Part shown: positions 1 through 29,520 of the stretch, piece after piece | Layout of the letters: every line of letters begins with the position of its first letter | Numbering within the stretch: position 1 is the first letter of the stretch | Virus genome (UHGV): UHGV-0119950 | DNA from: a virus | Length of the DNA: 53,290 nucleotides | Reading direction: 5' to 3' (one strand) | Notes under the pieces: generated by a model | Told to the model about the DNA's origin: nothing | The model's database searches: none | The model's input: only the letters and a program-made list of their open reading frames with translations | Translations under genes and position numbers: made by a program

Positions 1-50
1 AAGCGCAGGCGCAGCGATAAAGGAAAAAGATGACGCAGTAATTTATTCAT
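1..50 (-). CDS. phoQ: sensor kinase PhoQ, first 16 codons only (gene runs off the window)
   Basis: Minus-strand ATG overlaps phoP stop (TAATG); translation [16 protein letters not shown] resembles PhoQ N-terminus as I recall it. Confidence 0.5.
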   Translation of the reverse strand, partial: MNKLLRHLFPLSLRLR

Positions 51-724
51 TAGCGCAGTTCGAACAGGTATCCCTGACCACGGACGGTGGTAATCACATC
101 ATCAGGATATCGCGCCTGAATTTTTTTGCGTAAGCGCCCCATTAATACATCAATGGTATGGCTTTCACGCAGTTCCGCATCCGGGTAGAGCTGTAGCATC
201 AACGAATCTTTGCTGACGACTTTGCCATTATTGCGGATCAGCGTTTCCATAATGGTGTATTCAAACGCCGTCAGTTTTATCACTTCATCATTTACGGACA
301 ATTCACGGCGGGAGAGATCCACCTGAAAAGGCGGAATAGAGATAACCTGCGAGGCCAGGCCGCTGTTGCGGCGCATTAACGCCTGCATACGCGCGACCAC
401 TTCTTCAATATGAAACGGTTTTGTCACGTAGTCGTCGGCGCCTGCGCTCAGCACTTCCACTTTATCCTGCCAGCCTTCACGGGCGGTTAATACCAGAACA
501 GGAAGGGAAACGTCATTGCTGCGCCAGCGGCGGATCAGCGAAAGCCCGTCTTCATCCGGGAGGCCTAAATCGACGATGGCGATGTCCGGCAGATGCTCGT
601 TAAGATAATAATCGGCTTCCTTTGCATCTTCTGCGTCATCAACCTGGTGCCCCAAATCCTGTAATTGAACCTTCAGGTGGTGGCGTAATAAGGCATTATC
701 TTCGACAACCAGTACGCGCATCAT
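50..724 (-). CDS. phoP: response regulator PhoP (OmpR family)
   Basis: 224 aa; near-identical over its length to E. coli/Salmonella PhoP as I recall them ([19 protein letters not shown]...[12 protein letters not shown]); receiver plus winged-helix domains. Confidence 0.95.
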
Positions 725-794: not shown

Positions 795-2081
795 TTAAAT
801 AACTTTTTTCATACTCCCTCGCCCGTGGGGGCGTCCTGGGGGCAGTGCTGTCGGCATCTGATTGTTCAGCATGTTGACCTGATCCTGGTTCATGTCATCA
901 ATCCACTTGGAGTAAACCTCGTACACCATACGCGCATCTTCATGTCCCATCTGGCTGGCAATGAACGACGGGTTCGCTCCGGCCATCAGCGTCCAGCAGG
1001 CGTATGTGTGGCGCGACTGATATGGATTGCGCTTACGTATACCTGAAAGTTTAGTCCCACGTTTCCAGCCATACGAAATCGAGTCCTTGGAAAAGTAACC
1101 GCCTTTCGTTGATGAGTATGTTGTCGGTGAAAAAACGAAGCGAAGATATTGCTGCTCAGTTTTTCCGATCTCACGATGATGAAACTGAATTTCCTGTTTT
1201 GGACTGTTCCCGGTGATTTCGTATTGCTCCAGCAGAGCATCATGAGCAGGTTGCAGCAACGTTATCGTCCTTATCCCGGCATCTGTTTTAGGGGGTACAA
1301 ATACTCGCTTGTTCGTCAAATTTCTGGATACGTGGATTTCACCTTTTACCAAATCAATATCTTCCCATGCCAGTGCGCATATCTCGCCCGGCCTCATCCC
1401 TGTATGTACCGCAATAATGATGATTAATGCCTGGCTACGGGGAAGGGCGGCTATCAGTGCCTGGTACTCATGAAGTAAAAGTGGGTCGGGATCATTTTTA
1501 GATAACTTGAGTCGCGACACTCCTTCATAAGGAGCATGCAATATAAACTGGCTTCGGTTTGCAAGCTTCAGCATTTCTGATAAAACAGCCATCTGTTTAT
1601 TGACTGTTGAGGGCGCTCGCCCATTTTTGATGCGGTTTGGTATTGAAGGGTTGAAAACTTCCCCGGTCAGGAGTTCTTTGCGGTAATTCAGAATATCTGC
1701 GTGCTGAATATCAACCAGGCGTGTGTTCTCGCCCACTACTCGTTTCAGGGTTTTAACGACTGATGTGATGGATAGTAAAGTGGCTTCAGATACCTCCAGT
1801 GACTTTGTGTCTGTAAAAAAATCACTCAGTTCTTTGAATGTAGAGATCCGTTTTGTGGACGAAAATTTCTTAAGAGCTTTTGATTCCGGGAAACGATCTG
1901 CGTAGTCGAACTTACCGAGTTGTATCTCACTCACAATTGCCGCGCGCAGATTGCCCGCTTTTTTAATGTTGCTACTGTTGACAACCCAACCCTGGAGAAC
2001 TTCGCGGCAACGAATGCCGCGATAGATAAATGTGATCCTGATTTTTCCGTTATGCAGTTCAACACCAGTCGGATATTTCAT
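795..2081 (-). CDS. int: phage integrase, tyrosine recombinase
   Basis: 428 aa; C-terminal catalytic motifs (HTGMRPGE, RHTYACW...GHEDARMVYEVY); followed by xis on same strand; sits at prophage edge. Confidence 0.9.
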   Translation of the reverse strand: MKYPTGVELHNGKIRITFIYRGIRCREVLQGWVVNSSNIKKAGNLRAAIVSEIQLGKFDYADRFPESKALKKFSSTKRISTFKELSDFFTDTKSLEVSEATLLSITSVVKTLKRVVGENTRLVDIQHADILNYRKELLTGEVFNPSIPNRIKNGRAPSTVNKQMAVLSEMLKLANRSQFILHAPYEGVSRLKLSKNDPDPLLLHEYQALIAALPRSQALIIIIAVHTGMRPGEICALAWEDIDLVKGEIHVSRNLTNKRVFVPPKTDAGIRTITLLQPAHDALLEQYEITGNSPKQEIQFHHREIGKTEQQYLRFVFSPTTYSSTKGGYFSKDSISYGWKRGTKLSGIRKRNPYQSRHTYACWTLMAGANPSFIASQMGHEDARMVYEVYSKWIDDMNQDQVNMLNNQMPTALPPGRPHGRGSMKKVI

Positions 2082-2640: not shown

Positions 2641-3750
2641 TTAGTTCACGTATTCCGGTTTCATGTCGTCAAGGGTGATGCGGAACTGGTCATACAGTTC
2701 TTCACCCAGATGACGTTTGGCAGCGCTGAGCGTATTTTCAGCTTTAGCGAACATCGCTGCGGCTTCCGGTTCGCTGGGATTTGGAAGTGAGTTGATCACA
2801 GCCTCGACCTTGTTCTGCGCATCGACCTGGTAATAACGTTTCACCGCCTTATTTTTCAGTTCGGTGAACAGCGCTGTGCCCAGCAACGCTTTCTGCGATT
2901 CGATATCCGCGCGGATAGCTTTGGCCTGGTCAACAGAGCTTGCTGTATCAATCCGGTCACGTAGATCGTCTGCAACGGCATCAACATTAGTTGCCGATTC
3001 CTGCGCGCTGGTCGTGGTGCTAACCTCGCCAGTGATTTCCTGTACGCTCATGCGCTGGACTGGCGCAGGGTTAATCTCGCGTTCTTCTCGCTGCTCAACT
3101 TCATCAGGGCTGTACACGCCGAGGATCACTTCCGGGCAGTACAGGCGAGCCCAATATTTAACGCCCAAATAGGCAATTTGCTGTTTAGGATTGGAAACCC
3201 ACAGCGGGGAATTGCGGGTAACAACGCCGGAGAGGTAAAGAGGTTCCCCCCAGGTGATTTCGGATTCACCGCGCAGGATTGCGCCAACCTGGACGAACAG
3301 GCCGATCTCGTCCTCATCCGTCCAGCCACGAACGCGTTCAGTGACGGTGTATTTGCCGTTTTTCCCGTTTTTATCGCGCGTAATTTCCTGTGTTCTGGTG
3401 CAGCGCTCCCAGTCACCTCCATAACGGTAATGAAAACGGCCATGAATGGCACTGGAACTGGCGATTACCGCGTTGACAAGTTGCGCCTCGTATCCAAGAA
3501 CACCGTTAACCAGATGCGTTTTTTGCGCCACCGCGTATGGGTTCATGCCCCACTGCATCGCCTGCATAACGATTGCCATGCAGTCTGCCGGTTTACCTGC
3601 CAGATGCGCCGGGACCGTCACCTGGGAGTCGGCCATCAGATTTGCGAATGCGGTTAACTGGCTCAGCGCCTGTACGTTAAAAATCGCGTTACTGGCTGAA
3701 ATGGTGTTTGGTGCCTGCTGTTCAGTGGTGACAATGCTGGTGTTTTCCAT
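2641..3750 (-). CDS. single-strand annealing protein, RecT/Red-beta family
   Basis: Start moved to ATG with RBS AAGGGGG (MENTSIV...). Segment MAIVMQAMQWGMNPY resembles lambda Bet LLIVANQYGLNPW; sits directly downstream of exonuclease gene. Confidence 0.7.
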   Translation of the reverse strand: MENTSIVTTEQQAPNTISASNAIFNVQALSQLTAFANLMADSQVTVPAHLAGKPADCMAIVMQAMQWGMNPYAVAQKTHLVNGVLGYEAQLVNAVIASSSAIHGRFHYRYGGDWERCTRTQEITRDKNGKNGKYTVTERVRGWTDEDEIGLFVQVGAILRGESEITWGEPLYLSGVVTRNSPLWVSNPKQQIAYLGVKYWARLYCPEVILGVYSPDEVEQREEREINPAPVQRMSVQEITGEVSTTTSAQESATNVDAVADDLRDRIDTASSVDQAKAIRADIESQKALLGTALFTELKNKAVKRYYQVDAQNKVEAVINSLPNPSEPEAAAMFAKAENTLSAAKRHLGEELYDQFRITLDDMKPEYVN

Positions 3751-3760
3751 GATTTCCCCC

Positions 3761-6700
3761 TTATGCCTGTACGCGCAGCGCTTCAAGACGGCGCACATCA
3801 AAATCGTTGAGTTCTTCGGCGTAATCTTCGGTAATCGGCGCTGGCCATTCGCCAGTGTCGAACCCGTTCGCTATGGCGCGCATCGCTTTGCGGTATTCCA
3901 GCATGCCGAGTTCAAGCAGTTCTTCGGATGCCTCGATGATGGCGATCCAGTGGTAGTTCTCGTCTTTGTTGACGAATATCCAGAAAAACTGGTCCAGCGC
4001 TGCGGTTTCGCAGTACATGGCAGCGCTCAGGTGATAATCGCGCTCGATGATTTCCCGGTGCAGTTTGGCGCGTAGGCCTTCCTGCTTGATATTCCACATG
4101 CTGATAGTCTTCAGGTCAGCGCCGATGCGCAGGCCGCCCATGTCGATTTCAAGGTCTGGCCGCACGCGGATTTCCAGCCCGGTTTCCTCATCAATACCGA
4201 AATAGCTCACTTCTACGGCGCGGTTCGGATGCGTCAGCAGCTTCCCGGCGGTCGGGTGATTCAGCAGCGCTTTCTGGATGGCCTGCGCGGTGCTCAACTG
4301 CTGGCGGGTAACCAGAATTTTATCGCCGGGATTTTCTCGCCAAGCGTCAAGCAGCTCGTCGGCAAACACTGTTTCAGGTTTGACGGTTTTCACTGTCTGA
4401 ATCAGATCCGCTTTGGTGCCGGATACTTTCAACGGCTGTGGCTTCTGTGCTTCCTGTGCAACGAGATCAGGATTGATGATCGCCAGTTGCTCAAGCAGCG
4501 CGTCACGGCTTCCGCTGGTTTTCACCTGCGGCGGAAGGGTGGCGTTGTACTCTTTGATGCAGGCCTTCATTGCTGTGGCGGTATGCTTGGTTCCGTTCTC
4601 AATACGCTGGAACTCTTCAGGCAATTGCTCATATGATGCATACGATTCGTCAACGGATGCCCCAAGCGGTAACGGTGCGGGCAGGGTGGTGTTGTACTCT
4701 TCCAGTAGCGCTTTTATATCGTCGGCACTAAGCAGCGGCGGCAGGCTGGCGTTGTGCTCGTCGATAACCGCGCGGATCGTCGCTGTCGTCGTAAGCGCGC
4801 CTTCCGGGATTTCCGGTTCGATGCTGAACTCTTTTTCCAGTTGTTCAGGCTGTAACGCCAGCGCATGCACCAGGTTCCCCATATCCAGGACTTTGGTGCG
4901 TTCTTTCTGGATGGTTTTGGATACGTGGCGCGCCTCGAAATACATCAGCGATACCCGCGCATCTTTTACCATCGTCGAACTGATGCCATTCGCCGCGTGA
5001 TATACCTCGTTCGGTACGCCTTCATAACGCCCCGGCTCGAAGTATTCCGGCCACACTGGCGTTGGTTCTTCCTGTTGCGCTTCTGGCTCAGAATGGCTTG
5101 CAGAATCGTTGTTCTGGCTCACTTCCGACTGATTGTGGTCTACATCGGCTTGCTCGCCGGTATCTGCTTCTTCACCATTCCCCAAATCGCTTTCGCTTGT
5201 ACGCAGCGCATCACCAGTCTGTTTTTCATCACTGACAGTTTCTTGAACCTGCACATCGCTGGTGGTCTCCGCTTCCTGTTTTGTGCCATGAGTTGAGGAG
5301 TTCTGCATTAAAGCGGACACGTCGAAAATGTCGTCTGCAACTTTTTTCACCAGTTCAGGTTGCTCGGTTTGCTGGCTTGTCTCTGTCTTCACCCATTTCG
5401 GATCATTTGGGTCGCTGATACCCGGAACGAATTCACCGCGACCGGCGGCAAGCTGGCGTTCAACCTCTTCGCGGAGTAACTCAAGCGCAGAAGTGACCTT
5501 CTCGGGTGCCGGAGCCATCGGCATTGGCATTGATGAGCGACCGCAGGCGATATCAACGATCATTTCATCCGGGTGAGCGTGATCGGTTTCAGTCATGACA
5601 CGATTGAGATACTCGCGATGACGGAAAGGAGATTTAAACAGTTCCTCTGGCGTTGTTTTTACCGTAGCGACATTGCAGGCGCGGGAGTAATCCATCCCAC
5701 CAGGCATTTCTTCAAACAATTTGCAGGTCGCAATAAATTCATCGAGTACGTTATCTTCCCCTGAGCGGGAGAGATTCATAATGGCGTTGGCTTCAACATC
5801 GATCTCGAAGGAAGGGCTGTAAATATCGAACTCTTTGTTACGGGCGATCAGGCCAAGTGCTATTTCATATTCGAGCCCGGTTTTTGTCAGTGGAGTAAGA
5901 CGGTCAGTCTTATTACCGCCACCGGCGTTCGCGCCAGATGGTGTGCGATTAATTTCAGATACACGATTACCTTTGCACCACTCTTTAACGAGCAGCCCGC
6001 GATCAATATGAGGGGTATCGAACCATGTTTTCAGAAACTGGATAACGCTTGCCAGCTCAGGGATTTTGCCATCGGCAGGAAACACGCTCTTAACAGCATT
6101 TACCGCTTTATGGATATCGTGTTCAATGGCCTTTTTGAATGGTTCAACATTCTCAGCCGCAAGTAAAAGGTTCTGGACATATGAATTATCTGTGTCCATT
6201 TCCAGAGCGAGAATTGCTTTTTTCTGCTCTGCGTCGACATGATAGAGATACTCGCCATCGCCAATATGTTGAGCCAGAACACGATGACGGAAGGGCATTG
6301 TTGCCACAACGGTTAACTGAGGGTGTTCAGGTAGATCGCCATTGTCTTCAGTTGACGCCTGATCGTGCTGGATAATTTCGCCAGTTTCGGTATCGACAAC
6401 TTCTTCATTGCCAAAATCTTCCGTGTGATCTTCCAGCACTTCACCTGTTTCGGTATCAACACCATCAACGATACGCTGACGGGCGACGGCAACGGCCTCA
6501 GAAGAGGGCAACGTAACACCGGGGATCTGTACCCAGGTCATGTTGTCTTTGCCGAGTTGGTAGAAATCGCAGAACGTTAAGCTGAGTTCGCCTTCTGGCG
6601 GAAGCTCGTTAACGACGGGGAAATTAGTGGCAACAGCTTTAAAATAATCTTTCAGCTTTGCGCCGGATTTAATCAGGAGATAATCCAGTGTGGCATTTGC

Positions 6701-6796
6701 CGCTTCAAAATCATCGCTGCACCAGAGAACTGCATCTTTATGGCCAGATGATTTCTTTGCTTTGCGGACTAAAAATACAGGATTAGTTCCACTCAT
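3761..6796 (-). CDS. exodeoxyribonuclease VIII-like (RecE-like) with long acidic central region
   Basis: About 1011 aa from ATG with RBS GAGGA (MSGTNPVFLV...); large size, nuclease-like C-terminus and pairing with RecT-like gene. Track ORF start at 7003 would overlap upstream gene. Confidence 0.7.
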   Translation of the reverse strand: MSGTNPVFLVRKAKKSSGHKDAVLWCSDDFEAANATLDYLLIKSGAKLKDYFKAVATNFPVVNELPPEGELSLTFCDFYQLGKDNMTWVQIPGVTLPSSEAVAVARQRIVDGVDTETGEVLEDHTEDFGNEEVVDTETGEIIQHDQASTEDNGDLPEHPQLTVVATMPFRHRVLAQHIGDGEYLYHVDAEQKKAILALEMDTDNSYVQNLLLAAENVEPFKKAIEHDIHKAVNAVKSVFPADGKIPELASVIQFLKTWFDTPHIDRGLLVKEWCKGNRVSEINRTPSGANAGGGNKTDRLTPLTKTGLEYEIALGLIARNKEFDIYSPSFEIDVEANAIMNLSRSGEDNVLDEFIATCKLFEEMPGGMDYSRACNVATVKTTPEELFKSPFRHREYLNRVMTETDHAHPDEMIVDIACGRSSMPMPMAPAPEKVTSALELLREEVERQLAAGRGEFVPGISDPNDPKWVKTETSQQTEQPELVKKVADDIFDVSALMQNSSTHGTKQEAETTSDVQVQETVSDEKQTGDALRTSESDLGNGEEADTGEQADVDHNQSEVSQNNDSASHSEPEAQQEEPTPVWPEYFEPGRYEGVPNEVYHAANGISSTMVKDARVSLMYFEARHVSKTIQKERTKVLDMGNLVHALALQPEQLEKEFSIEPEIPEGALTTTATIRAVIDEHNASLPPLLSADDIKALLEEYNTTLPAPLPLGASVDESYASYEQLPEEFQRIENGTKHTATAMKACIKEYNATLPPQVKTSGSRDALLEQLAIINPDLVAQEAQKPQPLKVSGTKADLIQTVKTVKPETVFADELLDAWRENPGDKILVTRQQLSTAQAIQKALLNHPTAGKLLTHPNRAVEVSYFGIDEETGLEIRVRPDLEIDMGGLRIGADLKTISMWNIKQEGLRAKLHREIIERDYHLSAAMYCETAALDQFFWIFVNKDENYHWIAIIEASEELLELGMLEYRKAMRAIANGFDTGEWPAPITEDYAEELNDFDVRRLEALRVQA

Positions 6797-6920
6797 TATT
6801 TGATCCTCAATTCGTGTAGAATGGAGGCGCCTTAATGGCACCTCGGTTTTACCAGGTGATGTCCGGTGTAACTTTGGTCGGTGCCACCGGACGGAAGGCC
6901 CACCCTGTGTGGGCTTTCGC

Positions 6921-7208
6921 TTAATGAACAGTTCTGAAAACTTTTTCTGAGTAATCGAGTTTGTAGCTGCGGTAGTTGCCAAAACCGGCGTTATCGCCAT
7001 CACTTACTTTCACGGACAACATTGAAATTGCCTCTACAGCACAAAGAGGACAGTCGAACTTGCCGAATACATAGCCACCGTCAAGAATGACCGTGACCGC
7101 GCCCGTTTCGGCTGAATGAATAACGCCTGATACTTTCTTCTCGCAGTTGAATACAGCCAATTCTTTATTCACTGCTTTCAGGTTCATTTCGATTTTTGCG
7201 ATTTCCAT
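6921..7208 (-). CDS. hypothetical early protein
   Basis: 95 aa ORF in early-left operon. Confidence 0.45.
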   Translation of the reverse strand: MEIAKIEMNLKAVNKELAVFNCEKKVSGVIHSAETGAVTVILDGGYVFGKFDCPLCAVEAISMLSVKVSDGDNAGFGNYRSYKLDYSEKVFRTVH

Positions 7209-8562: not shown

Positions 8563-8954
8563 TAGTTACACGCGAATTTTATACCATCTAGTGTTGTGTT
8601 TTTAAGGATGTCTTCGGCATAAAATTTGAAGTAAACCCTCATCAAAGATGAAAAATACCAAGTATATTCCTTTAAAAAATCCTCATTGAGATTTTCGCTT
8701 TTTGGATAAGAGAAAATCATTCTAATGTCGATTTTTAGAGAAAAATCTGGTTTTTCACTGCCTTTCCTGAACCCTTGAGCGATGGGGCTTGCTGAAACTT
8801 TAATTGATGACATTGATGGATCGCCACCACCGACTTCAAAATCTAAGGCGCCATATACAACCTTGATCGTGCCCTCACCAGGTGTAAGCATGGTTTGATT
8901 GAACTCCACGTTTAGAATCGCAGATTCAACCATGTTGATATCGTTAGGCAACAT
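8562..8954 (-). CDS. hypothetical protein, cassette gene 3 of 3
   Basis: 130 aa; AT-rich; start overlaps stop of upstream gene by 11 nt; no recognisable motif. Confidence 0.5.
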   Translation of the reverse strand: MLPNDINMVESAILNVEFNQTMLTPGEGTIKVVYGALDFEVGGGDPSMSSIKVSASPIAQGFRKGSEKPDFSLKIDIRMIFSYPKSENLNEDFLKEYTWYFSSLMRVYFKFYAEDILKNTTLDGIKFACN

Positions 8955-9363
8955 TTATCTCATAATCCCTGTTTTGAGGCTTAATGGTAATCTTGATGAC
9001 TGGGCTTGGTTCGTCCATGAAACTATTTAAATTCATAACGTAGTGCTTATGAGCAGGTATAACAGGATGAGAAACATCACATCCATTCTTCAGGATTACT
9101 ACTTTTGCTTCGGCACCTAGAGCGTAGGAAATATCGGAGAGGGTTTTTAGTGTCATGTTCCTAGTTCCATCTAGCAACTGAGAAACATGCGAAGCCGACT
9201 TGCCAAGTTTTTTAGCAAGTTCACGCTTAGTTATACCTGTATCCTGCATAGCTAAAAGGATGTCTTCTGTAGTATTGAACACTAATCGTTCGGAAGCCAT
9301 CTCTCTATCACTAATGTATGGAAAACCAAAAATTTCTTCTGCGAAAGTCTTATCAGTAGTCAT
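8944..9363 (-). CDS. XRE-family HTH DNA-binding protein (antitoxin-like), cassette gene 2 of 3
   Basis: 139 aa; helix-turn-helix segment ITKRELAKKLGKSASHVSQLLDG; overlaps both neighbours. Confidence 0.6.
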   Translation of the reverse strand: MTTDKTFAEEIFGFPYISDREMASERLVFNTTEDILLAMQDTGITKRELAKKLGKSASHVSQLLDGTRNMTLKTLSDISYALGAEAKVVILKNGCDVSHPVIPAHKHYVMNLNSFMDEPSPVIKITIKPQNRDYEINVA

Positions 9364-10043: not shown

Positions 10044-10463
10044 TTATTGCGATTCTCCGTCACCCTTAATCCGTCGCCCCATGTACTTCGCGTACAGCTC
10101 GTCGAGCTCCTTCAGTCGCAGAGATACGATCCGCAACATGTTCTGCTGCTCTTCTTCCGGCAGCTGGCGATAGAGTTCCAGCAGGCGCTGCTCGTCAGGC
10201 TTCATACCATCTTTCTCGCCGACATCTTCCCCGAGCAGCCAGGCGACCGAAACACCAACAGCATCGGCTATAGCCAGTGCTGATTTTTTGCTAATAACGC
10301 CTTTTTTAAACCAGCTATTGACCGCCTGAGGCGAGACTCCGGCTATTCGCGCCATATCTGCTTTGGTAATGCCTCTGGCATAGACCTCGTTGAGTCGCGC
10401 TATCAATGCTTTGTTGGGTTCTTCTTTTCTCATTCTCTCATTGTAAATGGTTAGTTTACACAC
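10044..10463 (-). CDS. prophage repressor, CI-like HTH, no S24 peptidase domain
   Basis: 139 aa; HTH (ITKADMARIAGVSPQAVNSWFKKG); divergent from cro-like gene; too short for a LexA-like cleavage domain. Confidence 0.75.
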   Translation of the reverse strand: MCKLTIYNERMRKEEPNKALIARLNEVYARGITKADMARIAGVSPQAVNSWFKKGVISKKSALAIADAVGVSVAWLLGEDVGEKDGMKPDEQRLLELYRQLPEEEQQNMLRIVSLRLKELDELYAKYMGRRIKGDGESQ

Positions 10464-13402: not shown

Positions 13403-13714
13403 ATGGCAAGCAAATCACTGTGGGCAATTGTTGATTTCCTTCGGGAAAACCAGACCATCACGCCGCGACAGGTTCAGAACCTGCTGGGATGTGACTGCAA
13501 GAAATCTCACAACCTGTTGCTTCACCTGACGCGCAAAGCGGTAGTGATCCGTACAGGCGAGCCGCATCACCCGGTCTATTCGCTGTTGCCCGGCGGAGAA
13601 CTGAATATCAAGCGCTTCAAATCGACCGTGAGAAAAAACATGGTCTCATCCGTTTGCCGAAACAGTGCGGCGATGAAGCGAATTTTAATGGTTTGGGGGA
13701 GGGCATCAGCATGA
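13403..13714 (+). CDS. hypothetical protein
   Basis: 103 aa ORF with RBS GGGAGGAG. Confidence 0.4.
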   Translation: MASKSLWAIVDFLRENQTITPRQVQNLLGCDCKKSHNLLLHLTRKAVVIRTGEPHHPVYSLLPGGELNIKRFKSTVRKNMVSSVCRNSAAMKRILMVWGRASA

Positions 13715-14280
13715 AATCAACGGTAGAAACAAAAATCATTGAGTTAGTGAAGTCAGGGCATGAGCTGGCGAAAGAACTGCATTGTGCTGAGTCTGCCGCG
13801 CTGGTGAACTATCTGGCAACGCAGCTTGAAGTGCATTTTGCCCGTAGCAATGCGCTGGCTGCAAAACTGAGCATGATTAACGACCTCATGGATGCCGCTG
13901 AACAGGCCAACAAACTGGCGCAGGAAGCAACGGAAAAACTGGTACAGGAGCGTGACGCTCTGGCTGCGGAACTAAGCGCAGTTGAGTCCATTCACAACGA
14001 TGCAGTATTCATCACTGACGAGCACTATGAGCAATGCCCGCGAGAAGTTCAGAAGATAGTTCGATCGCTGGCTGTGTTGCAGATACCTGCTTACGACTCT
14101 TTCCTGGATGAAGTGCGGGCGCATGACCTTAACGCCTTCATTCAGCATCACAGTGCAGAACTGGATGCGCATATTAAAAACGGTGGTGAGCAGTTCGACG
14201 AAAAATCAGTACGCATCAGAGACATCATCGTCTCAGTTCGCTTGTTCATGGATCAACTTCGCAAAGGCGGTGCAGCATGA
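13711..14280 (+). CDS. hypothetical coiled-coil protein
   Basis: ATG at 13711 with RBS GGGGAGG, overlaps upstream stop (ATGA). Confidence 0.45.
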   Translation: MKSTVETKIIELVKSGHELAKELHCAESAALVNYLATQLEVHFARSNALAAKLSMINDLMDAAEQANKLAQEATEKLVQERDALAAELSAVESIHNDAVFITDEHYEQCPREVQKIVRSLAVLQIPAYDSFLDEVRAHDLNAFIQHHSAELDAHIKNGGEQFDEKSVRIRDIIVSVRLFMDQLRKGGAA

Positions 14281-14825
14281 AACCAACATTAACGGCAGAA
14301 TTGCGAAGGGAACTGCATAAATTGGCAACTGACGCGCACGAGTTGGGCATCATCAAGCGGTATTCGAAGGGACTAGAGGCGCAGAGAAAATTTTACGCTG
14401 CTGCAACCCCTCTGGTTATTCGCGCGCTGCTGGATGAGCTGGAAGCGCTCCAGTCTTTCCGTACCGCATTCAATGAGTGGCACGATAAAACAGAATGGGT
14501 GCAGACGGATAAGCGGCTTGACGTCATTAAGCCGTGGGGTAAGCACCGCGCCGACGTTCTGAAGCTCTATATCGATCACCTGGAATCAAAGCCGGAAGCC
14601 AAAGAAGAACAGCGAGCTAACTGGTTTCATATGGCGCAGAAGTTAGGCGAGAATTTGGACGCCGCAGAGAAGCGCATAGCAGAACTGGAGGCGAAATTAG
14701 CTAACCCCGTGCTGCTCCCGAAAACAAACGGCTACTGGACTGAGCAAGAAAAGGCGTATGAAGAAGCCATTATGTTCGCTAAGCGGCAGGTTCGTCTGGC
14801 TGGATTCAGTGTGGAGGACATGTAA
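14277..14825 (+). CDS. hypothetical protein (Ead/Ea22-like early protein)
   Basis: 182 aa helical ORF; start overlaps upstream stop. Confidence 0.4.
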   Translation: MKPTLTAELRRELHKLATDAHELGIIKRYSKGLEAQRKFYAAATPLVIRALLDELEALQSFRTAFNEWHDKTEWVQTDKRLDVIKPWGKHRADVLKLYIDHLESKPEAKEEQRANWFHMAQKLGENLDAAEKRIAELEAKLANPVLLPKTNGYWTEQEKAYEEAIMFAKRQVRLAGFSVEDM

Positions 14826-15067
14826 TGGCTATTTTTATGGAAGTACGTTGTGCAGGTCGCGGTGATGTTGATGGTTGCCATTCTGACCAGAACGCCGAAC
14901 CAATGACGACAGCACATGAAAGCGTTAAGGGTGTTTCTACGGCGCTGAAATTTCTTAAAGACGATTCACTCAATAACGGCTGGGTGTTGCACAAAGGTGA
15001 GCTTTATTGCCCGGCATGCGCCGAAGCAAAAGCATGGGACGCCGCTGGCATCGGTAAGGGGGAGTGA
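14825..15067 (+). CDS. hypothetical protein with C-terminal CPAC motif
   Basis: 80 aa ORF. Confidence 0.35.
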   Translation: MAIFMEVRCAGRGDVDGCHSDQNAEPMTTAHESVKGVSTALKFLKDDSLNNGWVLHKGELYCPACAEAKAWDAAGIGKGE

Positions 15068-15069
15068 TA

Positions 15070-15254
15070 TGAAACGAGAAATTATTACCGTCACCCGTCC
15101 TGGAAACTGCTGCCCAGGGCATGACAAATACCCATGCGAAAAATACAGAAACAGACGCTCTGTTCGCCAGCGCGCTATCGGTATTAAAAAAGAACATCGC
15201 CATGTGCGCAGGAATATGCGTCAGGAGTTGCTTTCAGTTATAGGTGAGGACTAA
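15070..15254 (+). CDS. hypothetical small Cys-rich basic protein
   Basis: 61 aa from internal ATG (MKREIITVTRPGNCCPGHDKYPCEKYR...). Confidence 0.35.
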
Positions 15255-15257
15255 CCC

Positions 15258-15536
15258 ATGACCACTATTACCAGAGAGCTTATCGCCGCATATCTTAACG
15301 GCGAAGTTAAAACGCTCACTAACAGCGAACAGAAAGAGCTGGCGCGTATCGCGCTGGCATCGCTGGACGATGAAATAAAACTACGCCCTGTAGGGGTTAT
15401 GAGCGAGTCAGCCTTTCATAGGCTTGAACGCAGCGAGTCACGTTTTATTGCGCTGTGGCCTCGTCCTGGTATCTTTTTGCCGCGCCCACGTCCAGACGAT
15501 GGCGTTATCGTTTATGCAAAGGTTGAGGGTGCGTGA
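15258..15536 (+). CDS. hypothetical protein
   Basis: 92 aa ORF in tightly packed early operon. Confidence 0.4.
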   Translation: MTTITRELIAAYLNGEVKTLTNSEQKELARIALASLDDEIKLRPVGVMSESAFHRLERSESRFIALWPRPGIFLPRPRPDDGVIVYAKVEGA

Positions 15537-15772
15537 TGGCTATTGCATCAGGATATTCCATTGACGCCTATTGCGACTGCGAACAATGCGTAAATAACAT
15601 CGACCCAGTTGGTCGTTGGTGCCGTCAAGAAATGATCAGCGCAACCGGAGAGTCTTACGCAGAATGCGCTGCGCTAATCCGTAGCTATGGCTGGAAGTTA
15701 AGTCGCAACAAGATGCATGCGTTGCACCTGGGCATAAAAAACCGAAATCATGGAGTAAATTATGACAACTAA
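15536..15772 (+). CDS. hypothetical Cys-containing protein
   Basis: 78 aa; ATG overlaps upstream stop. Confidence 0.4.
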   Translation: MAIASGYSIDAYCDCEQCVNNIDPVGRWCRQEMISATGESYAECAALIRSYGWKLSRNKMHALHLGIKNRNHGVNYDN

Positions 15773-16337
15773 CAACCACCCGGCGCACGGCCCGCTCTCA
15801 GATTACCGATTGCACTGCATTCGTGAAATCTTGGGCAAAGCAGCAGCACAAAGAGACGGCGGTAATCTCGGTTACGCAATGTCTGATGCTGTGAAAGCGT
15901 TTGATGAACTGCTGGAAGTGCGCAAGGCGGAGCCGGTTGCTTTCATCAATGGAGCGTGGACGCTGGTTTATTATCGCCCGCCGAAAGAATCTGGTCTGAA
16001 GATTGGCGATAAGCTCTACACCGCCCCGCCAGCGCCTGTAGATAACACGTTCATCCCCAAAAATCTGGACAGAGCGCTCGGCGTGGTTGGCGTGGCGCTA
16101 CCTGAGTCGAAAGAGGAGTTTAATTTCCAGATTGAGCGCTGGATACAGCGACTGATTGACCGTGTTATTCGTTACTCCGATGAATTCAAAGAGCAACCAG
16201 CACCAGTAGTGCCACCAGAGCAAAACTGGGAAGAGTTATGCCGACAGCATCCAGACATGAGCATCGGTGATGCCATTATTCGCGCTGCATGGTGGAATCT
16301 TTGCCGCGCCGCCATGCTTCAGGGGGATAAATCGTGA
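15762..16337 (+). CDS. hypothetical protein
   Basis: 191 aa ORF. Confidence 0.45.
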   Translation: MTTNNHPAHGPLSDYRLHCIREILGKAAAQRDGGNLGYAMSDAVKAFDELLEVRKAEPVAFINGAWTLVYYRPPKESGLKIGDKLYTAPPAPVDNTFIPKNLDRALGVVGVALPESKEEFNFQIERWIQRLIDRVIRYSDEFKEQPAPVVPPEQNWEELCRQHPDMSIGDAIIRAAWWNLCRAAMLQGDKS

Positions 16338-16825
16338 AAACTATCCAGTTATCTGAGCGTGAGCTTTTCATGATTTTCAACATGCTGACGCCGCCCTACG
16401 CAGTCAGCGACACCCACACAGACGAGTTCAACGAATTGCGTAACAAAGTCTTTTACGCTCTGCGTGATGCTCAGAACGATGAACCTGTAAGTAATCGTGA
16501 TGAGTTGCCGCTGGACTATCTTCAAGGCCACAAAGACGGACTTGAGTGGGCTGCACAACTGGCTGAGGCTAATCACCCACAAACCGGCGATTGGCTTTAC
16601 GATGACCCGACAGAGCTTGCAAAGGCGATACGCAAGGGGCCGGATATGCCATTACCCAATGGCAACTCTCCGGTGATTCCGAATGGTTGGGTAATGGTGC
16701 CTGTTGAGCCAACAGAAGCGATGATTAACGCTTACAGAGGTGCACTTTATTCAGGGGAGTCGGCTGTCTCCTGTATTGATTTGTACAAGGCCATGATTGC
16801 AGCAGCGCCACAGCAGGAGGAATGA
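16334..16825 (+). CDS. hypothetical protein
   Basis: 163 aa ORF, GTG start overlapping upstream stop. Confidence 0.45.
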   Translation: MKTIQLSERELFMIFNMLTPPYAVSDTHTDEFNELRNKVFYALRDAQNDEPVSNRDELPLDYLQGHKDGLEWAAQLAEANHPQTGDWLYDDPTELAKAIRKGPDMPLPNGNSPVIPNGWVMVPVEPTEAMINAYRGALYSGESAVSCIDLYKAMIAAAPQQEE

Positions 16826-17082
16826 TGGATCAACTTCTGCAATACGCCACCAATCGGATTATAGAACTGGAAAACCTTCTGCTGGTGAATGTTGAGGAAA
16901 CGGTCTGGCCAGCAGAGGTTCAGATGGTTTTTAGTCAAATCGAAAACGCCGGGAGTTTCCCGGCGCACCACCAGCGCCGATTGCAGCACCACATCAACAG
17001 AATGTGGCTGGAAAAAATACCGGTTACTTCGATTATTGCCGCAGCGCGCTCGCTGGCAGATGCAATGGAGAAATACGCGTGA
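16822..17082 (+). CDS. hypothetical protein
   Basis: 86 aa ORF. Confidence 0.4.
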   Translation: MMDQLLQYATNRIIELENLLLVNVEETVWPAEVQMVFSQIENAGSFPAHHQRRLQHHINRMWLEKIPVTSIIAAARSLADAMEKYA

Positions 17083-19160
17083 GAAATAGCGAAATCATTG
17101 TTGATAATTTTGCTGGTGGCGGCGGTGCTTCCACTGGAATTGAGATGGCGACTGGCCGCAGCGTGGACATTGCGATTAACCACGATCCGAATGCCGTTGC
17201 GATGCACACGACAAACCACCCCAATACACTGCATTATTGCGAATCTGTCTACGATGTCAGGCCGAAGGTAGCGACCGCCGGGCGTCCGGTGGCGCTGGCG
17301 TGGTTCTCGCCGGATTGCCGTCACTTTTCAAAAGCCAAAGGTGCGAAGCCGGTAGAGAAAGCGATCCGGGGTCTGGCCTGGGTAGTTCTGCGCTGGGGGC
17401 TGGATGTAAAACCCCGGGTGATGAAACTGGAGAACGTCGAAGAATTTAAAACGTGGGGCCCTTTGCTCGCTGGTGAAATGAGGCCAGACCCGGCCCGTGC
17501 TGGAGAAAATTTTGAGGCGTTCATTGGTATGCTGACTACTGGCATCCGGGCTGACCACCCGGCACTGGCGGAGTGCTGTGAATTTCTGGGTATTTCTCTT
17601 GATAGTGAAGACGCCGCGAGGCTGATCAAAGGGCTGGGCTACATCGTCGAGTATCGCGAGTTGCGCGCCTGCGACTACGGTGCGCCGACGATCCGCAAGC
17701 GATTCTTTATGATTATGCGTTGTGACGGGAAACCGATTGTGTGGCCTGAGCCAACACATGGCGATCCGAAATCACCGGCTGTCCAGGCTGGTAAGCTGGC
17801 ACCGTGGCGCACAGCTGCGGAGTGCATAGACTGGACAATTCCGGCTCCATCGATATTCGATCGCAAAAAGCCGCTGGCAGAAAATACCCTTAAGCGCATC
17901 GCGCGCGGCATCCAGCGATTTGTTATCGACAGTGCGTCGCCGTTTATCGTGAAGTGCAACCACACCAGCAGCCGTTCAAGTTATGATTGTTTCCGTGGGC
18001 AGCCACTGGAAGAACCCCTGCAAACGATCACGAAAAAGCATGGTTACGCCGTCGCAGTACCACATCTGACGAAGTTCCGTACCGGCGCAACCGGGCAGGA
18101 AGTCACCGAACCTGTACCGACTGTAACAGCTGGCACGTCGGCGCGCCCGGGTGGGAATGGTCATGCGCTTGGTATCGTTGAAGCTGCGCTGACTCCGTTC
18201 CTGGCTGGTAATGGCGGCAGTGAGTACCAGGCTAAGCCGCGCCCGCTGGATAAACCAGCTCACACTATACTGAAACAATCCCGGGCATGTGTCGTTGCGC
18301 CGGTTATCGCCCGACAGTTTGGCGCCAGCACCGGCCACCGCGCAGATGAGCCGAACGCGACTATTACCGCTGGTGGCGGCGGTAAATCGCAACTTGTTAC
18401 ATCGACACTGATCCAGATGGGATACGGGGAAAGGCCAGGTCAGGAACCTCGCGTTCTCCAGATCGAAAAACCGTTAGGGACAGTAACCGCTGGTGGAAAC
18501 AAGTTCGCCGTGGCCAGCGCATTTCTGGCGAAGCACTACGGCGGCAACTATACGGGACCGGGCGTCGGGCTGGATGAGCCGACTCACTCAGTTACGACGG
18601 TTGATCATCATGCGGTTGTTGCGGCACATCTAATGGTGAACAACACCGGGCATCCTGGCGGCTCCGTGGACTCTCCAGCGCATACCGTTACAACAGGAAA
18701 TCACCATGCTGTAGTGACTTCTCATCTTGTGCATTTGCGAGGGTTCTGCAAAGACGGTCAAAAAATGGATCAGCCGGTGCCAACGATTACCGCCGGAGGC
18801 CAGCATGTTGGGGAGGTGAAAACCACTCTGGCAGTTGAGCACTACAACGAACAGCGCGCGCAACAGACGTTGGCGTTCCTGCGTGAATATTGCGGCGAAG
18901 ATTGTACCGGGCTGGTGGATATCGACGGGATCACATATCGTATTGTTGATATCGGAATGCGCATGCTGCAACCGCATGAGCTTTACCGCGCGCAGGGCTT
19001 CCCGGACTGGTACATCATCGATCGGGATTATCGCGGCGTGAAGTATGCAAAGGATAAGCAGGTTGCCCGCTGCGGTAATGCTGTGCCGCCACCGTTCGCC
19101 GAGGCTCTGGTAAGGGCCAATTTACCCGAACTTTGCCAGCCGAAAGAAATGGCAGCGTAA
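17079..19160 (+). CDS. DNA (cytosine-5) methyltransferase with eight tandem repeats in the variable region
   Basis: Motif I DNFAGGGG, motif IV SPDCRHFS (Cys present, PDC not PCQ), motif VI LENVEEF, motif IX QGFPDWY, motif X CGNAV; GTG at 17079 with GGAG upstream chosen over track start 17004. Confidence 0.8.
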   Translation: MRNSEIIVDNFAGGGGASTGIEMATGRSVDIAINHDPNAVAMHTTNHPNTLHYCESVYDVRPKVATAGRPVALAWFSPDCRHFSKAKGAKPVEKAIRGLAWVVLRWGLDVKPRVMKLENVEEFKTWGPLLAGEMRPDPARAGENFEAFIGMLTTGIRADHPALAECCEFLGISLDSEDAARLIKGLGYIVEYRELRACDYGAPTIRKRFFMIMRCDGKPIVWPEPTHGDPKSPAVQAGKLAPWRTAAECIDWTIPAPSIFDRKKPLAENTLKRIARGIQRFVIDSASPFIVKCNHTSSRSSYDCFRGQPLEEPLQTITKKHGYAVAVPHLTKFRTGATGQEVTEPVPTVTAGTSARPGGNGHALGIVEAALTPFLAGNGGSEYQAKPRPLDKPAHTILKQSRACVVAPVIARQFGASTGHRADEPNATITAGGGGKSQLVTSTLIQMGYGERPGQEPRVLQIEKPLGTVTAGGNKFAVASAFLAKHYGGNYTGPGVGLDEPTHSVTTVDHHAVVAAHLMVNNTGHPGGSVDSPAHTVTTGNHHAVVTSHLVHLRGFCKDGQKMDQPVPTITAGGQHVGEVKTTLAVEHYNEQRAQQTLAFLREYCGEDCTGLVDIDGITYRIVDIGMRMLQPHELYRAQGFPDWYIIDRDYRGVKYAKDKQVARCGNAVPPPFAEALVRANLPELCQPKEMAA

Positions 19161-19166
19161 TGTATA

Positions 19167-19200
19167 ATCCCTCTCAAAGCATCGAGAGGGATTCGTTTTT
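19167..19200 (+). terminator. rho-independent terminator after methyltransferase
   Basis: Stem ATCCCTCTC / GAGAGGGAT with 8-nt loop, followed by T-run. Confidence 0.5.
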
Positions 19201-19377
19201 CTTCGGTATCTCGCGCTGCGGACTGTAGAGTTTCCCGTTAATAACTATCCAGCTACCCTTAATCCACTTCGTGACCTGCTGTCGATTAACGCCCATATGT
19301 CTGGCGAACTCTGATTGATTTCCCTGGTGGTGAATAGCAATGTAATCGGTCAAGGTAAGAGCATTCATGTTATTCAC
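19174..19377 (-). CDS. Cro-like HTH DNA-binding protein
   Basis: 67 aa; HTH (QSEFARHMGVNRQQVTKWIKG); start overlaps stop of upstream acidic-protein gene. Confidence 0.5.
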   Translation of the reverse strand: MNNMNALTLTDYIAIHHQGNQSEFARHMGVNRQQVTKWIKGSWIVINGKLYSPQREIPKKNESLSML

Positions 19378-19840
19378 CTTTTACAGCAGGGTTGACGATC
19401 AGATAGCTGGTACCGTGCTCGTCTTCCATTTCTACAGCGTCGAAACCAAGATGGGCGGCAGCGCGACCTCTCAGGCGCTGCATTTCCCAACTAGCTGCTG
19501 CAAACTCATCCGCTGAATCAGTCCGAGGTGACAGAATATCAGCAAACGCGTCGTCACACTCATCGTCAGCCAGTGCGTATGCCAGCGCTTCCAGTTGTTC
19601 TTCGTCTGCTTCAACTTCACTACGCAGGAAACTTATGACATCAGCGATACGGTCGTGTAAGTCTCCATTATCTGCGATGATTTCAACGTTGTAGCTGTAA
19701 ACAAAATTACCGTGAGAGCCTGCAACATCGAAATCTGAGCAAGCAAAGATACCATCAAAAATATTGTCACCAGACATTGCGAAAGCGCCAACTTTGATTA
19801 CTGGAGCGGTGTTTTCGTATGAGCCGTGAAACAGTTTCAT
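19370..19840 (-). CDS. hypothetical strongly acidic protein
   Basis: 156 aa; long acidic stretch (EVEADEEQLEALAYALADDECDDAFADIL); co-oriented with downstream HTH gene. Confidence 0.5.
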   Translation of the reverse strand: MKLFHGSYENTAPVIKVGAFAMSGDNIFDGIFACSDFDVAGSHGNFVYSYNVEIIADNGDLHDRIADVISFLRSEVEADEEQLEALAYALADDECDDAFADILSPRTDSADEFAAASWEMQRLRGRAAAHLGFDAVEMEDEHGTSYLIVNPAVKGE

Positions 19841-19893: not shown

Positions 19894-20072
19894 TTCAAGT
19901 GACTTTTATCACGGATCGGAAAGACATTGGTACGTGTATAATGATAAAAAATGAATACCGTAGGGGATTGCATGTCAGACTGGAATATCGCAGCAAAATA
20001 GAAAGAAGAGCAGGACAAGGTTAATGTTGATCTGGCCGCCAGCGGCGTTGCGTATAAAGAGCGCCTGAACAT

Positions 20073-20231
20073 GCCGGTTGTTGCTGAAGTGGTGATGCGT
20101 GAGCAGCCGGAGCACTTGCGCGACTATTTCATTGAGCGCGTCAGATACTATCGTGAGCAAAGCCTGAAGCTACCGAAATCATCCGATCCGCGCTACATCG
20201 AAATGGCTGAGCAGAACGCCAAAAAGTAACT
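20073..20231 (+). CDS. hypothetical small protein (52 aa)
   Basis: Not in ORF track; short ORF ([30 protein letters not shown]...) ending just before a strong terminator; coding status uncertain. Confidence 0.25.
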
Positions 20232-20362: not shown

Positions 20363-20380
20363 TACGCAATGGAGGCCACT

Positions 20381-20614
20381 ATGAAAGTTGAGTTAACTAT
20401 TGATCGAACAAAGAAACTTCCTGATGGTGCAGTGCCAGCACTTGAAAAAGAATTGCTTAAACGACTGAATAATCAGTATGAGAATTGCAGCCTGACAATC
20501 CGTCGCGCCGGATCAGATGGACTGAGCGTTTTCGGTGGCGATAAGGACGATAAAAAGAAAATTGAAAAGATCCTCCAGGAGACCTGGGAAAGCGCTGACG
20601 ACTGGTTTTACTAA
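20381..20614 (+). CDS. dinI: DinI-family protein
   Basis: MKVELTIDRTKKLP...KIEKILQETWESADDWFY matches E. coli DinI as I recall it (C-terminal ILQETWESADDWF); RBS GGAGG; LexA box upstream. Confidence 0.8.
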   Translation: MKVELTIDRTKKLPDGAVPALEKELLKRLNNQYENCSLTIRRAGSDGLSVFGGDKDDKKKIEKILQETWESADDWFY

Positions 20615-29519: not shown

Positions 29520-29520
29520 T

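Follow-up and report, generated by a model that had tools for sequence, protein, structure and literature searches.

Eight short units at the target-recognition position of an orphan prophage C5-cytosine methyltransferase evolve like cassettes

Introduction

How can a single catalytic core serve eight candidate target readers? The question is raised by a gene in the virus genome UHGV-0119950, whose 53,290 nucleotides (nt) make up the whole window analysed here. The gene encodes a 693-amino-acid (aa) C5-cytosine DNA methyltransferase (hereafter, the methylase). Every C5 methylase holds its target-recognition domain between motifs VIII and IX. In M.HhaI, the site is read by two Gly-rich loops, which lie around Q237 and T250-L251; we verified these positions in its sequence. 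Canonical enzymes such as M.HhaI, M.HaeIII and 3g7u (from the Escherichia coli prophage CP-933R) carry one recognition domain, ~80 aa long, and their motif IV reads P-C-Q. The methylase has their catalytic fold and their order of motifs I-X, but the likeness in sequence is limited to the core motifs: the recognition position is filled by eight tandem units, each built around the pattern P-x-x-T-[IV]-T.

The concept of a multispecific phage methylase is decades old. M.SPbetaI combines two specificities, GGCC and GCNGC, and the recognition domains of the multispecific Bacillus enzymes are ~40-50 aa long. Tandem recognition domains within one polypeptide have been described for Bacillus phage methylases (PMC12707154, PMC8936443). 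Do the units of the methylase likewise read separate sequences, do they form one elongated domain, or are they a scaffold with no part in recognition?

Here we report a computational analysis of the gene, its prophage and its relatives. The units are gained, lost and reordered among related proteins, and relatives with the same architecture have been tested and partly protect DNA against many restriction enzymes. With a probability of roughly 0.55, we read the methylase as an orphan phage enzyme of a relaxed-specificity family that is multispecific by virtue of eight tandem mini target-recognition cassettes.

Results

Eight units between motifs VIII and IX

The loose pattern P..[ST][IVL][TLK] occurs in the methylase at aa 313, 345, 393, 425, 465, 501, 533 and 566 (residues are counted from the GTG at 17079). 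The strict pattern P..T[IV]T has six copies; 20,000 shuffles gave 0.03 on average and never more than 2. A hidden Markov model (HMM) of the unit, 35 positions long and iterated over ~1,980 units from 271 proteins, finds exactly eight units at aa 309-596 (nt 18003-18866), each with E <= 2e-8 (Table 1). The array lies between motif VIII (204-208) and motif IX (628-642). These counts, shuffles and model matches bear out the eight tandem repeats that an earlier reading of the sequence alone had noticed. That reading gave a repeat size of 25-33 aa, which needs correction: the units measure 31-43 aa and recur with a period of 32-48 aa.

The consensus of the unit is close to x-[LV]-[DE]-x-P-x-x-T-[IV]-T-[AT]-G-x-H-x-A-V-V-x-x-x-L-x-x-x-x-G-x-x-x-G. 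At its core, Pro is present in 98% and Thr in 95% of 1,022 units from the family. The eight units of the methylase are only 13-45% identical to one another, and Tandem Repeats Finder detects no DNA-level repeats in the gene. We conclude that the repeat is old and present at the protein level only.

How unusual is such an array? An exhaustive search of 50%-identity cluster representatives returned 2,580 relatives at E < 1e-30, with lengths of ~470-1,100 aa. In the best 150 of these, which we surveyed for unit number and for motif IV, the array holds 1 to 12 units, most often 7, and each unit adds ~32 aa to a core of ~444 aa. The methylase had been called oversized; this is correct by comparison with canonical enzymes (320-450 aa), but not within its own family, where ~650-700 aa is normal.

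Units as cassettes

If the units were readers in their own right, how would they be expected to evolve? We clustered 729 full-length units and defined types at 50% identity. The types are discrete and are set mainly by their C-terminal tails (GYGERxGQ, KHYGG.., KFRxGstG, LRGTCkDG, AEVRAFLxKYYG and others). Each type is present in one copy per protein: 56 units in 56 proteins, 46 in 46 and 43 in 43. Each unit of the methylase most resembles one particular unit elsewhere, and identity between a unit and its best cognate is 45-87%. For six of the eight, a cognate with 57-73% identity is carried by a representative whose overall identity to the methylase does not exceed 63%. Cognates do not keep the same place in the array from protein to protein. 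Cognate units are about as similar as the catalytic cores in the same protein pairs (0.54-0.60 vs 0.52-0.62), a comparison made partly circular by setting types at 50%. Unit-type content is uncorrelated with core identity (r = 0.03).

Closely related proteins differ by whole units. Among relatives whose cores are 77-93% identical to that of the methylase, the arrays, written in unit numbers, read 12345678, 1234578 (in many), 1245678, 134578, 13457 and 1x4578. Kluyvera cryocrescens (locus L061, 3995-5419) has array 18 only, a protein of 475 aa with unit 1 plus a hybrid of units 2 and 8. The hybrid arose by recombination between the near-identical P-[VM]-P-T-[VI]-T-A-G heads of these two units. 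In pairwise alignments the cassette deletions are exact and in frame, and their junctions fall within framework motifs. The junction in L008 is ..VD / HHAVV.., with a loss of 32 aa; in L019 it is ..ALAPF / IARQF.., a fusion of the strands of units 2 and 3; in L040 it is ..AVPK / VTPFL.., a fusion of the strands of units 1 and 2; and in L061 it is ..PMPTV / TAGGQHVG...

Arrays have also been reordered: 145347xx in Rahnella (L051 and L052), x41x7xx in Brevibacillus (L076) and xx415xxx6 in Cohnella (L060). Cognates of units 1, 4, 5, 6 and 7 stand in altered order in relatives, Firmicutes included. The cassettes are therefore common to several phyla and have no fixed position.

Where does one module end and the next begin? 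The tail of a unit co-varies with the head of the next unit (r = 0.24; identity 0.45-0.52 vs a background of 0.25) and shows no co-variation with its own head (r = 0.08). The heritable module is therefore a variable loop, [DE]xPxxT[IV]T and a variable turn, with the joints in the conserved A-L-V strand. Purifying selection acts on all eight units across genera, loops included (array 0.86 vs core 0.90).

We conclude from these alignments that the units evolve as separate, swappable cassettes that are lost, gained and reordered by in-frame recombination at framework motifs. The literature that we searched contains no description of the cassette or repeat architecture of this family. What seems to be new is a set of 1-12 mini-modules of discrete types, with natural single-cassette deletions at clean junctions. 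Given this anatomy, the assignment of modules to motifs is directly testable.

Two other accounts of the repeat were considered and rejected. A decaying pseudo-repeat is ruled out by the conservation of all eight units across genera. A closed beta-propeller does not fit with a unit number that varies between 1 and 12, nor with the loss of single units.

Relatives with known activity

Have enzymes of this architecture been assayed? Dziewit et al. (2014) studied the 5-methylcytosine (5mC) methylases JCM7686_0772 and JCM7686_2655 of Paracoccus aminophilus prophages in E. coli and ascribed to them 'relaxed substrate specificity' (PMC3925955). DNA was partly protected from 16 of the 28 restriction enzymes tested: AluI, BglI, Bme1390I, BsuRI, CaiI, EcoO109I, EcoRII, Hin6I, HpaII, HpyF10VI, MspI, NciI, PauI, PvuII, TaiI and XhoI (PMC3925955, Table S6). 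The other 12 cleaved fully: Bsh1236I, Bsp68I, Bsp143I, BspLI, Eco130I, FspBI, Hin1II, HinfI, MbiI, MluI, NcoI and PamDI (PMC3925955, Table S6). Sites that were partly protected thus include AGCT, GGCC, CCNGG, CCWGG, CCSGG, CCGG, GCGC, ACGT and CTCGAG, among others, and sites left unprotected include CGCG, GATC, CCATGG, CTAG, CATG and GANTC, among others (PMC3925955). The pattern is selective, not uniform. A later paper summarises the Paracoccus enzymes as modifying one cytosine in a CC motif, notes widespread phage homologues of these ~700-aa proteins, Gammaproteobacteria included, and credits the Aeromonas phage enzymes ARM81ld_p31 and ARM81mr_p29 with relaxed specificity, citing Dziewit and Radlinska (2016) (PMC5537653). 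These papers on the relatives give the relaxed specificity but not the repeat or cassette architecture.

How close is the methylase to these enzymes? ARM81ld_p31 is 41.6% identical to it by tblastn over 99% of the query (43.7% and 41.6% in two overlapping segments by blastp). It has the motif IV SPDCRHFS, five units and the same C-terminal tail, VRANLPELC. The link to Paracoccus was made via Pyei1_p05, a stand-in that is ~69% identical to JCM7686_0772 and JCM7686_2655 (PMC6536676). Pyei1_p05 is 40.8% identical to the methylase over aa 6-687 (E = 1.8e-167); its motif IV is SPDCKHFS, and of its eight units several match those of the methylase in type and others do not. The methylase, ARM81ld_p31 and Pyei1_p05 all combine SPDCxHFS with P-x-x-T-[IV]-T units that stand in tandem after motif VIII and before motif IX, and the relatives are likewise orphan genes of temperate phages, near replication or partition genes. 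The differences lie in overall identity (41-44%), in unit number and type and in the hosts. By homology and common architecture, the methylase therefore belongs to an experimentally sampled family of broad-specificity phage methylases. The sequence-only reading had offered a multispecific or broad-specificity anti-restriction enzyme, and this suggestion gains support from the tested relatives of the same architecture and from the cassette-like evolution of the repeats.

The family

Sequence comparison places the methylase as an ordinary member of a very large phage and prophage family that spans phyla. Close homologues (82-91% identical, ~690 aa, almost all of them with eight units) are found in Enterobacter, Citrobacter, Salmonella and Klebsiella, annotated solely as 'DNA cytosine methyltransferase'. 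Among sequenced phages, the family is present in those of Klebsiella, Escherichia, Citrobacter, Pectobacterium, Ralstonia, Burkholderia, Aeromonas, Vibrio, Pseudomonas, Nostoc, Roseburia and Bacillus. Members also occur in genomes from Enterobacterales, Firmicutes, Alpha- and Betaproteobacteria and Verrucomicrobia. Our literature search found no characterised enterobacterial member.

One member lies in an unannotated stretch at 29221-30537 of KY197768.1 ('Bacillus phage phi105'); aligned in two pieces, it is 51% identical over 88% of the methylase. Bacillus phages therefore harbour this family alongside the classical multispecific enzymes.

The catalytic core

Is the core that of an ordinary C5 methylase? 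The Pfam model PF00145 matches the methylase in three stretches with 71.2 bits, against a cutoff of 22 (E = 1.4e-19). The TIGR00675 dcm model gives a score of 47.9, under its cutoff of 100.65. Motifs I, IV (its Cys), VI, VIII, IX and X follow one another in canonical order and are invariant or nearly so in 122 relatives. AlphaFold predicts the catalytic domain with a predicted local distance difference test (pLDDT) score > 90, and Foldseek matches the core to 3g7u, DNMT1, M.HhaI and M.HaeIII with probability 1.00. Sequence and model together identify the enzyme as a C5-cytosine methyltransferase, with a predicted standard C5 mechanism that uses Cys80 as the nucleophile, ENV and R206/R208. The claim of a C5 methylase with all core motifs holds: PF00145 scores above its cutoff and every catalytic motif is found.

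The same can be said of the observation that motif IV reads SPDCRHFS, not PCQ. Asp takes the place of Pro beside the Cys, and Arg that of Gln. In the 150 representatives surveyed, the motif is almost always SPDC[KTR]HFS, and therefore this unusual motif IV is a signature of the family. The family shows no variation at P78 and C80, and at least 90% of its members have D79. Published assays report activity for relatives with SPDCxHFS.

Between motifs VI and VIII lies a segment of ~30 aa (aa 153-182, nt 17535..17624) that is confidently predicted as two helices. It is present in the methylase and in ARM81ld_p31 and missing in many relatives, whose matches break at 152 and 183.

Comparison with the Bacillus enzymes

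Does the methylase descend from the known multispecific enzymes? The Bacillus set (M.SPRI, M.Phi3TI, M.SPbetaI, M.Rho11sI and M.H2I) and M.(phi)BssHII are also orphan phage enzymes with one core. Their tandem modules, too, sit between motifs VIII and IX, in colinear order, and differ by presence or absence among related phages. M.SPbetaI, read from the phage genome, has two similar motif copies, SPTLTTMGGGH and EPAFTVNTIDRHGVAI; each module contains an [SE]-P-x-[TF]-[LV]-[TN]-T element that resembles the core of our units, a resemblance confined to the motif. The lineages are separate, however. M.SPbetaI has a canonical F-P-C in motif IV where the methylase has P-D-C, and a profile of the whole family aligns with its core only (aa 115-259). 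The Bacillus enzymes have 2-4 modules, compared with eight of 32-48 aa here and up to 12 in the family, and the independence of the modules is proven for the former and inferred for the latter. By analogy, the methylase may work like the Bacillus multispecific enzymes while standing outside their lineage. The layout of a cassette (variable loop, T-[IV]-T, Gly-rich turn) is comparable to that of the M.HhaI recognition loops.

The gene and its prophage

The open reading frame (ORF) that encloses the gene is 17004..19160 (+). Within it, GTG 17079, from which the sequence-only reading also counted, is most likely the true start, because it overlaps the TGA of the upstream ORF (GTGA), because GGAG lies 11 nt upstream and because the 693-aa product occurs in public assemblies. 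Identical copies of this product are annotated there as a gene. Full-length DNA matches to the gene were found in two E. coli genomes, at 80%; other genomes match in part, and near-identical DNA in phage records is limited to the 3' 170 nt.

The window is a near-complete lambdoid, Rac-like prophage with one host junction (Table 1). The methylase lies in the nin region, between O-/P-like replication genes and NinB and the antiterminator Q. Past it come a leftward AcrIF11-like gene with a helix-turn-helix (HTH) gene, then DinI, NinB, YbcO, RusA and Q. No endonuclease partner is found among the neighbouring genes. The methylase is thus an orphan, as had been proposed, and a restriction-modification system was rejected for want of a nuclease partner. 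Nor are there modification-pathway genes nearby.

Upstream of the methylase, several nin-region ORFs at 13654..16825 (+) have common C-terminal similarity to phrog_368, phrog_12449 and phrog_60, with one weak Ead/Ea22 match; these similarities suggest a set of small paralogous early proteins. Downstream, the AcrIF11-like protein, a homologue of an anti-CRISPR ADP-ribosyltransferase, matches PDB 6kyf_A (E = 1.1e-11) and has a precomputed match to PF26151, although a local copy of Pfam finds nothing. Its 67-aa HTH neighbour is probably an Aca-type regulator. A conserved anti-defence pair of methylase and AcrIF11-like gene was considered and rejected: none of the 80 related loci has the AcrIF11-like gene, or the pair that it forms with the HTH gene, within 4 kb of the methylase. 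The adjacency is therefore specific to this prophage. A small ORF that resembles DNA polymerase III theta (a recorded Pfam match at approximately 20071..20229, +) and a DinI-like gene (approximately 20369..20614, +) follow, both between the anti-CRISPR pair and ninB. Together with the methylase, the Acr, theta-like and DinI-like genes form a host-manipulation cluster in the nin region.

Table 1. Features of the methylase and of the prophage that carries it (nucleotide positions in the window; residues of the methylase)
Feature	Position (nt)	Residues (aa)	Strand	Remarks
Host response regulator	50..724			
Phage integrase	795..2081			
RecT	2641..3801			
RecE-type exonuclease VIII	3761..7003			1,080 aa; C-terminal PDDEXK domain
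CI-like HTH repressors	8944..9363, 10044..10463			
Shine-Dalgarno-like GGAGA	17063..17067		+	11 nt 5' of the methylase GTG; read from the sequence
Orphan C5-cytosine DNA methyltransferase, coding sequence	17079..19160		+	693 aa plus stop; GTG start
Motif I, FAGGGG	17109..17126	11-16	+	S-adenosylmethionine (AdoMet) binding; F11, G13, G15 and G16 invariant in family
Motif IV, SPDCRHFS	17307..17330	77-84	+	Catalytic Cys80 follows Asp, not Pro
Motif VI, ENV	17430..17438	118-120	+	Invariant in family
Motif VIII, TIRKR	17688..17702	204-208	+	T204, R206 and R208 invariant
Unit 1, PLEEPLQTITKKHGYAVAVPHLTKFRTGATGQE	18003..18101	309-341	+	Tail type KFRTGATG
Unit 2, VTEPVPTVTAGTSARPGGNGHALGIVEAALTPFLAGNGGSEYQ	18102..18230	342-384	+	Long turn insertion
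Unit 3, PLDKPAHTILKQSRACVVAPVIARQFGASTGH	18243..18338	389-420	+	Tail type RQFGASTG
Unit 4, RADEPNATITAGGGGKSQLVTSTLIQMGYGERPGQEPR	18339..18452	421-458	+	Tail type GYGERxGQ, found across phyla
Unit 5, IEKPLGTVTAGGNKFAVASAFLAKHYGGNYT	18462..18554	462-492	+	Type KPLGTV.AG / KHYGGNY
Unit 6, LDEPTHSVTTVDHHAVVAAHLMVNNTGHPGG	18570..18662	498-528	+	Cassette most often missing among close relatives
Unit 7, SVDSPAHTVTTGNHHAVVTSHLVHLRGFCKDGQ	18663..18761	529-561	+	Tail type LRGTCKDG
Unit 8, MDQPVPTITAGGQHVGEVKTTLAVEHYNEQRAQQ	18765..18866	563-596	+	Runs into a predicted helix (aa 591-605) before motif IX
Motif IX region, RMLQPHELYRAQGFP	18960..19004	628-642	+	Includes QGFP 639-642
Motif X, GNAVPP	19074..19091	666-671	+	G666, N667, V669 and P671 invariant
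Terminator-like hairpin	19166..19193		+	Directly 3' of the methylase stop; consensus match only
HTH protein (HTH_28 / YdaS-like)	19174..19377		-	67 aa; same strand as the AcrIF11-like gene
AcrIF11-like anti-CRISPR ADP-ribosyltransferase homologue	19370..19840		-	156 aa; tail-to-tail after the methylase stop

Discussion

How would a multispecific methylase of this kind work? In the lysogen the gene would stay silent, and the enzyme would appear early once the prophage is induced or a new cell infected, as part of delayed-early rightward expression. We propose this timing because the gene lies in the rightward nin operon and its start is coupled to the upstream ORF. Replicating phage DNA would then be methylated at many different short sequences, so that progeny phages would already be partly shielded from many Type II, and possibly other, restriction systems on reaching a new host. 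Broad restriction protection is known for the relatives. Each cassette would consist of a variable loop, [DE]-x-P-x-x-T-[IV]-T, a variable turn and a hydrophobic strand, and the cassettes are proposed to alternate at the single catalytic cleft, each adding a sequence preference of its own. The scheme would be that of the two-to-four-domain Bacillus phage methylases, with more and shorter modules. The same logic is seen in orphan prophage enzymes of another kind, M.EcoGII, the Hia5/Hin1523 class and ARM81ld_p56, which are silent in the lysogen and carry out broad anti-restriction methylation (PMC12707154, PMC3299994, PMC7556043). These enzymes, however, modify N6 of adenine, belong to a different fold class and have no repeat array; their breadth comes from a lack of specificity.

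Several points weigh against a multispecific reading. One specificity per cassette is what we infer, and no unit is tied to any specificity. The literature search found no experiments on the methylase or its close orthologues, and partial-protection assays of the kind made on the relatives cannot tell several discrete specificities from one short degenerate motif. Units of ~32 aa fall short of the length of the Bacillus recognition domains. Their similarity to M.SPbetaI is not significant (best HMM domain E = 0.13; hhalign E = 0.095 over 15 columns), and they give no alignment with the M.HhaI recognition domain in a profile comparison; nor does the unit profile find anything among PDB sequences at E <= 10. 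In the full-length AlphaFold model, built on a 122-sequence alignment, the core is confident and the array has a pLDDT < ~58. In the model of the natural two-unit variant L061 (mean pLDDT 82.7), unit 1 scores 52-78 and the hybrid-unit region, aa 337-369, < 50. With low scores for the array in both models, there is no structural support for the docking of units. Finally, the order of unit types is loosely conserved (standard deviation of relative position 0.07-0.27), which also fits diverged repeats of one elongated domain.

That last thought can be extended into an alternative which strikes us as unlikely, though it deserves serious attention: the eight units would together form one elongated domain, an open beta-hairpin solenoid, whose target would be only a minimal or degenerate motif, for example CC or GC in loose contexts. 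The repeats would provide general DNA affinity or processivity, and the enzyme would be relaxed, not multispecific. The loose order of the units, their shortness and their lack of significant similarity to known autonomous recognition domains all fit this picture, as does the fact that the relatives protect only partially at every protected site; the CC motif ascribed to the Paracoccus enzymes (PMC5537653) points the same way. The protection data are nevertheless awkward for a single motif: AGCT, GCGC and ACGT are protected and contain no CC, and CGCG and ACGCGT contain GC yet are fully cut. Unit types are kept at 54-60% across phyla, compared with ~25% between siblings, which is hard to explain for generic DNA-binding repeats. 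Moreover, single units are cleanly lost from otherwise near-identical proteins, down to two units, and their order is rearranged in some lineages.

Might the array have nothing to do with recognition? It could be a scaffold, the fallback of the sequence-only reading, that binds a phage or host protein, tethers the enzyme to the replisome or packaging machinery, or acts as a decoy, with specificity supplied by aa 215-300 and 597-625. Both flanks are modelled as well folded, with pLDDT 80-98, and show strong conservation, and the poorly modelled array may be flexible or disordered. We hold this to be quite improbable. The array sits exactly where C5 methylases have their recognition domain, its near-invariant P-x-x-T core recalls the T-[LIV] element of the M.SPbetaI domains, and family members with one or two units still retain a unit. 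No conserved partner gene is seen; the AcrIF11-like neighbour, the sole one tested, is absent from the related loci. Least probable of all is altered chemistry, in which the P-D-C of motif IV would reflect transfer of a non-methyl C5 group, or a single-stranded DNA or RNA substrate. Motif IV does lack the Pro-Cys dipeptide and the following Gln, the dcm score is below its cutoff, a natural C5-carboxymethyltransferase (8yf3) is among the fold matches and restriction-protection assays cannot identify the chemical group. But 8yf3 is no closer than ordinary methylases in the fold search, every other motif for catalysis or AdoMet binding keeps its canonical form without variation, the surroundings of the gene hold no modification-pathway genes and the relatives block 5mC-sensitive enzymes on double-stranded plasmid DNA in E. 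coli. We therefore retain a multispecific methylase with eight mini recognition cassettes as our reading.

A bolder proposal, which we put at somewhat below even odds, concerns the family as a whole. It may be a natural combinatorial system in which autonomous cassettes of ~32 aa, each reading its own short sequence, serve one common core, and in which in-frame recombination at the P-x-x-T-[IV]-T and A-L-V framework inserts, removes and rearranges them. If so, one polypeptide would hold eight, and up to 12, methylation specificities, which would make these enzymes the most multispecific DNA methyltransferases known and their cassettes the smallest modular sequence readers described for the C5 methyltransferase class. 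The family would then offer a parts list of very small DNA-recognition modules, useful for methyltransferase engineering and for reading 5mC methylomes. Natural variants with added or deleted units exist for pairing modules with motifs, those with deletions (L008, L019, L040 and L061) being ready-made constructs for tests of cassette function, and thousands of genes annotated 'DNA cytosine methyltransferase' could be re-annotated by cassette content.

What would this mean for the phages? Induced prophages that carry a methylase of this type are expected to have heavily 5mC-marked DNA, itself a target of Type IV restriction. If the cassettes are independent readers, a single gene would give a phage protection against many restriction systems, and this would help to account for the wide range of hosts in which these temperate phages occur, both among Enterobacterales and outside them.

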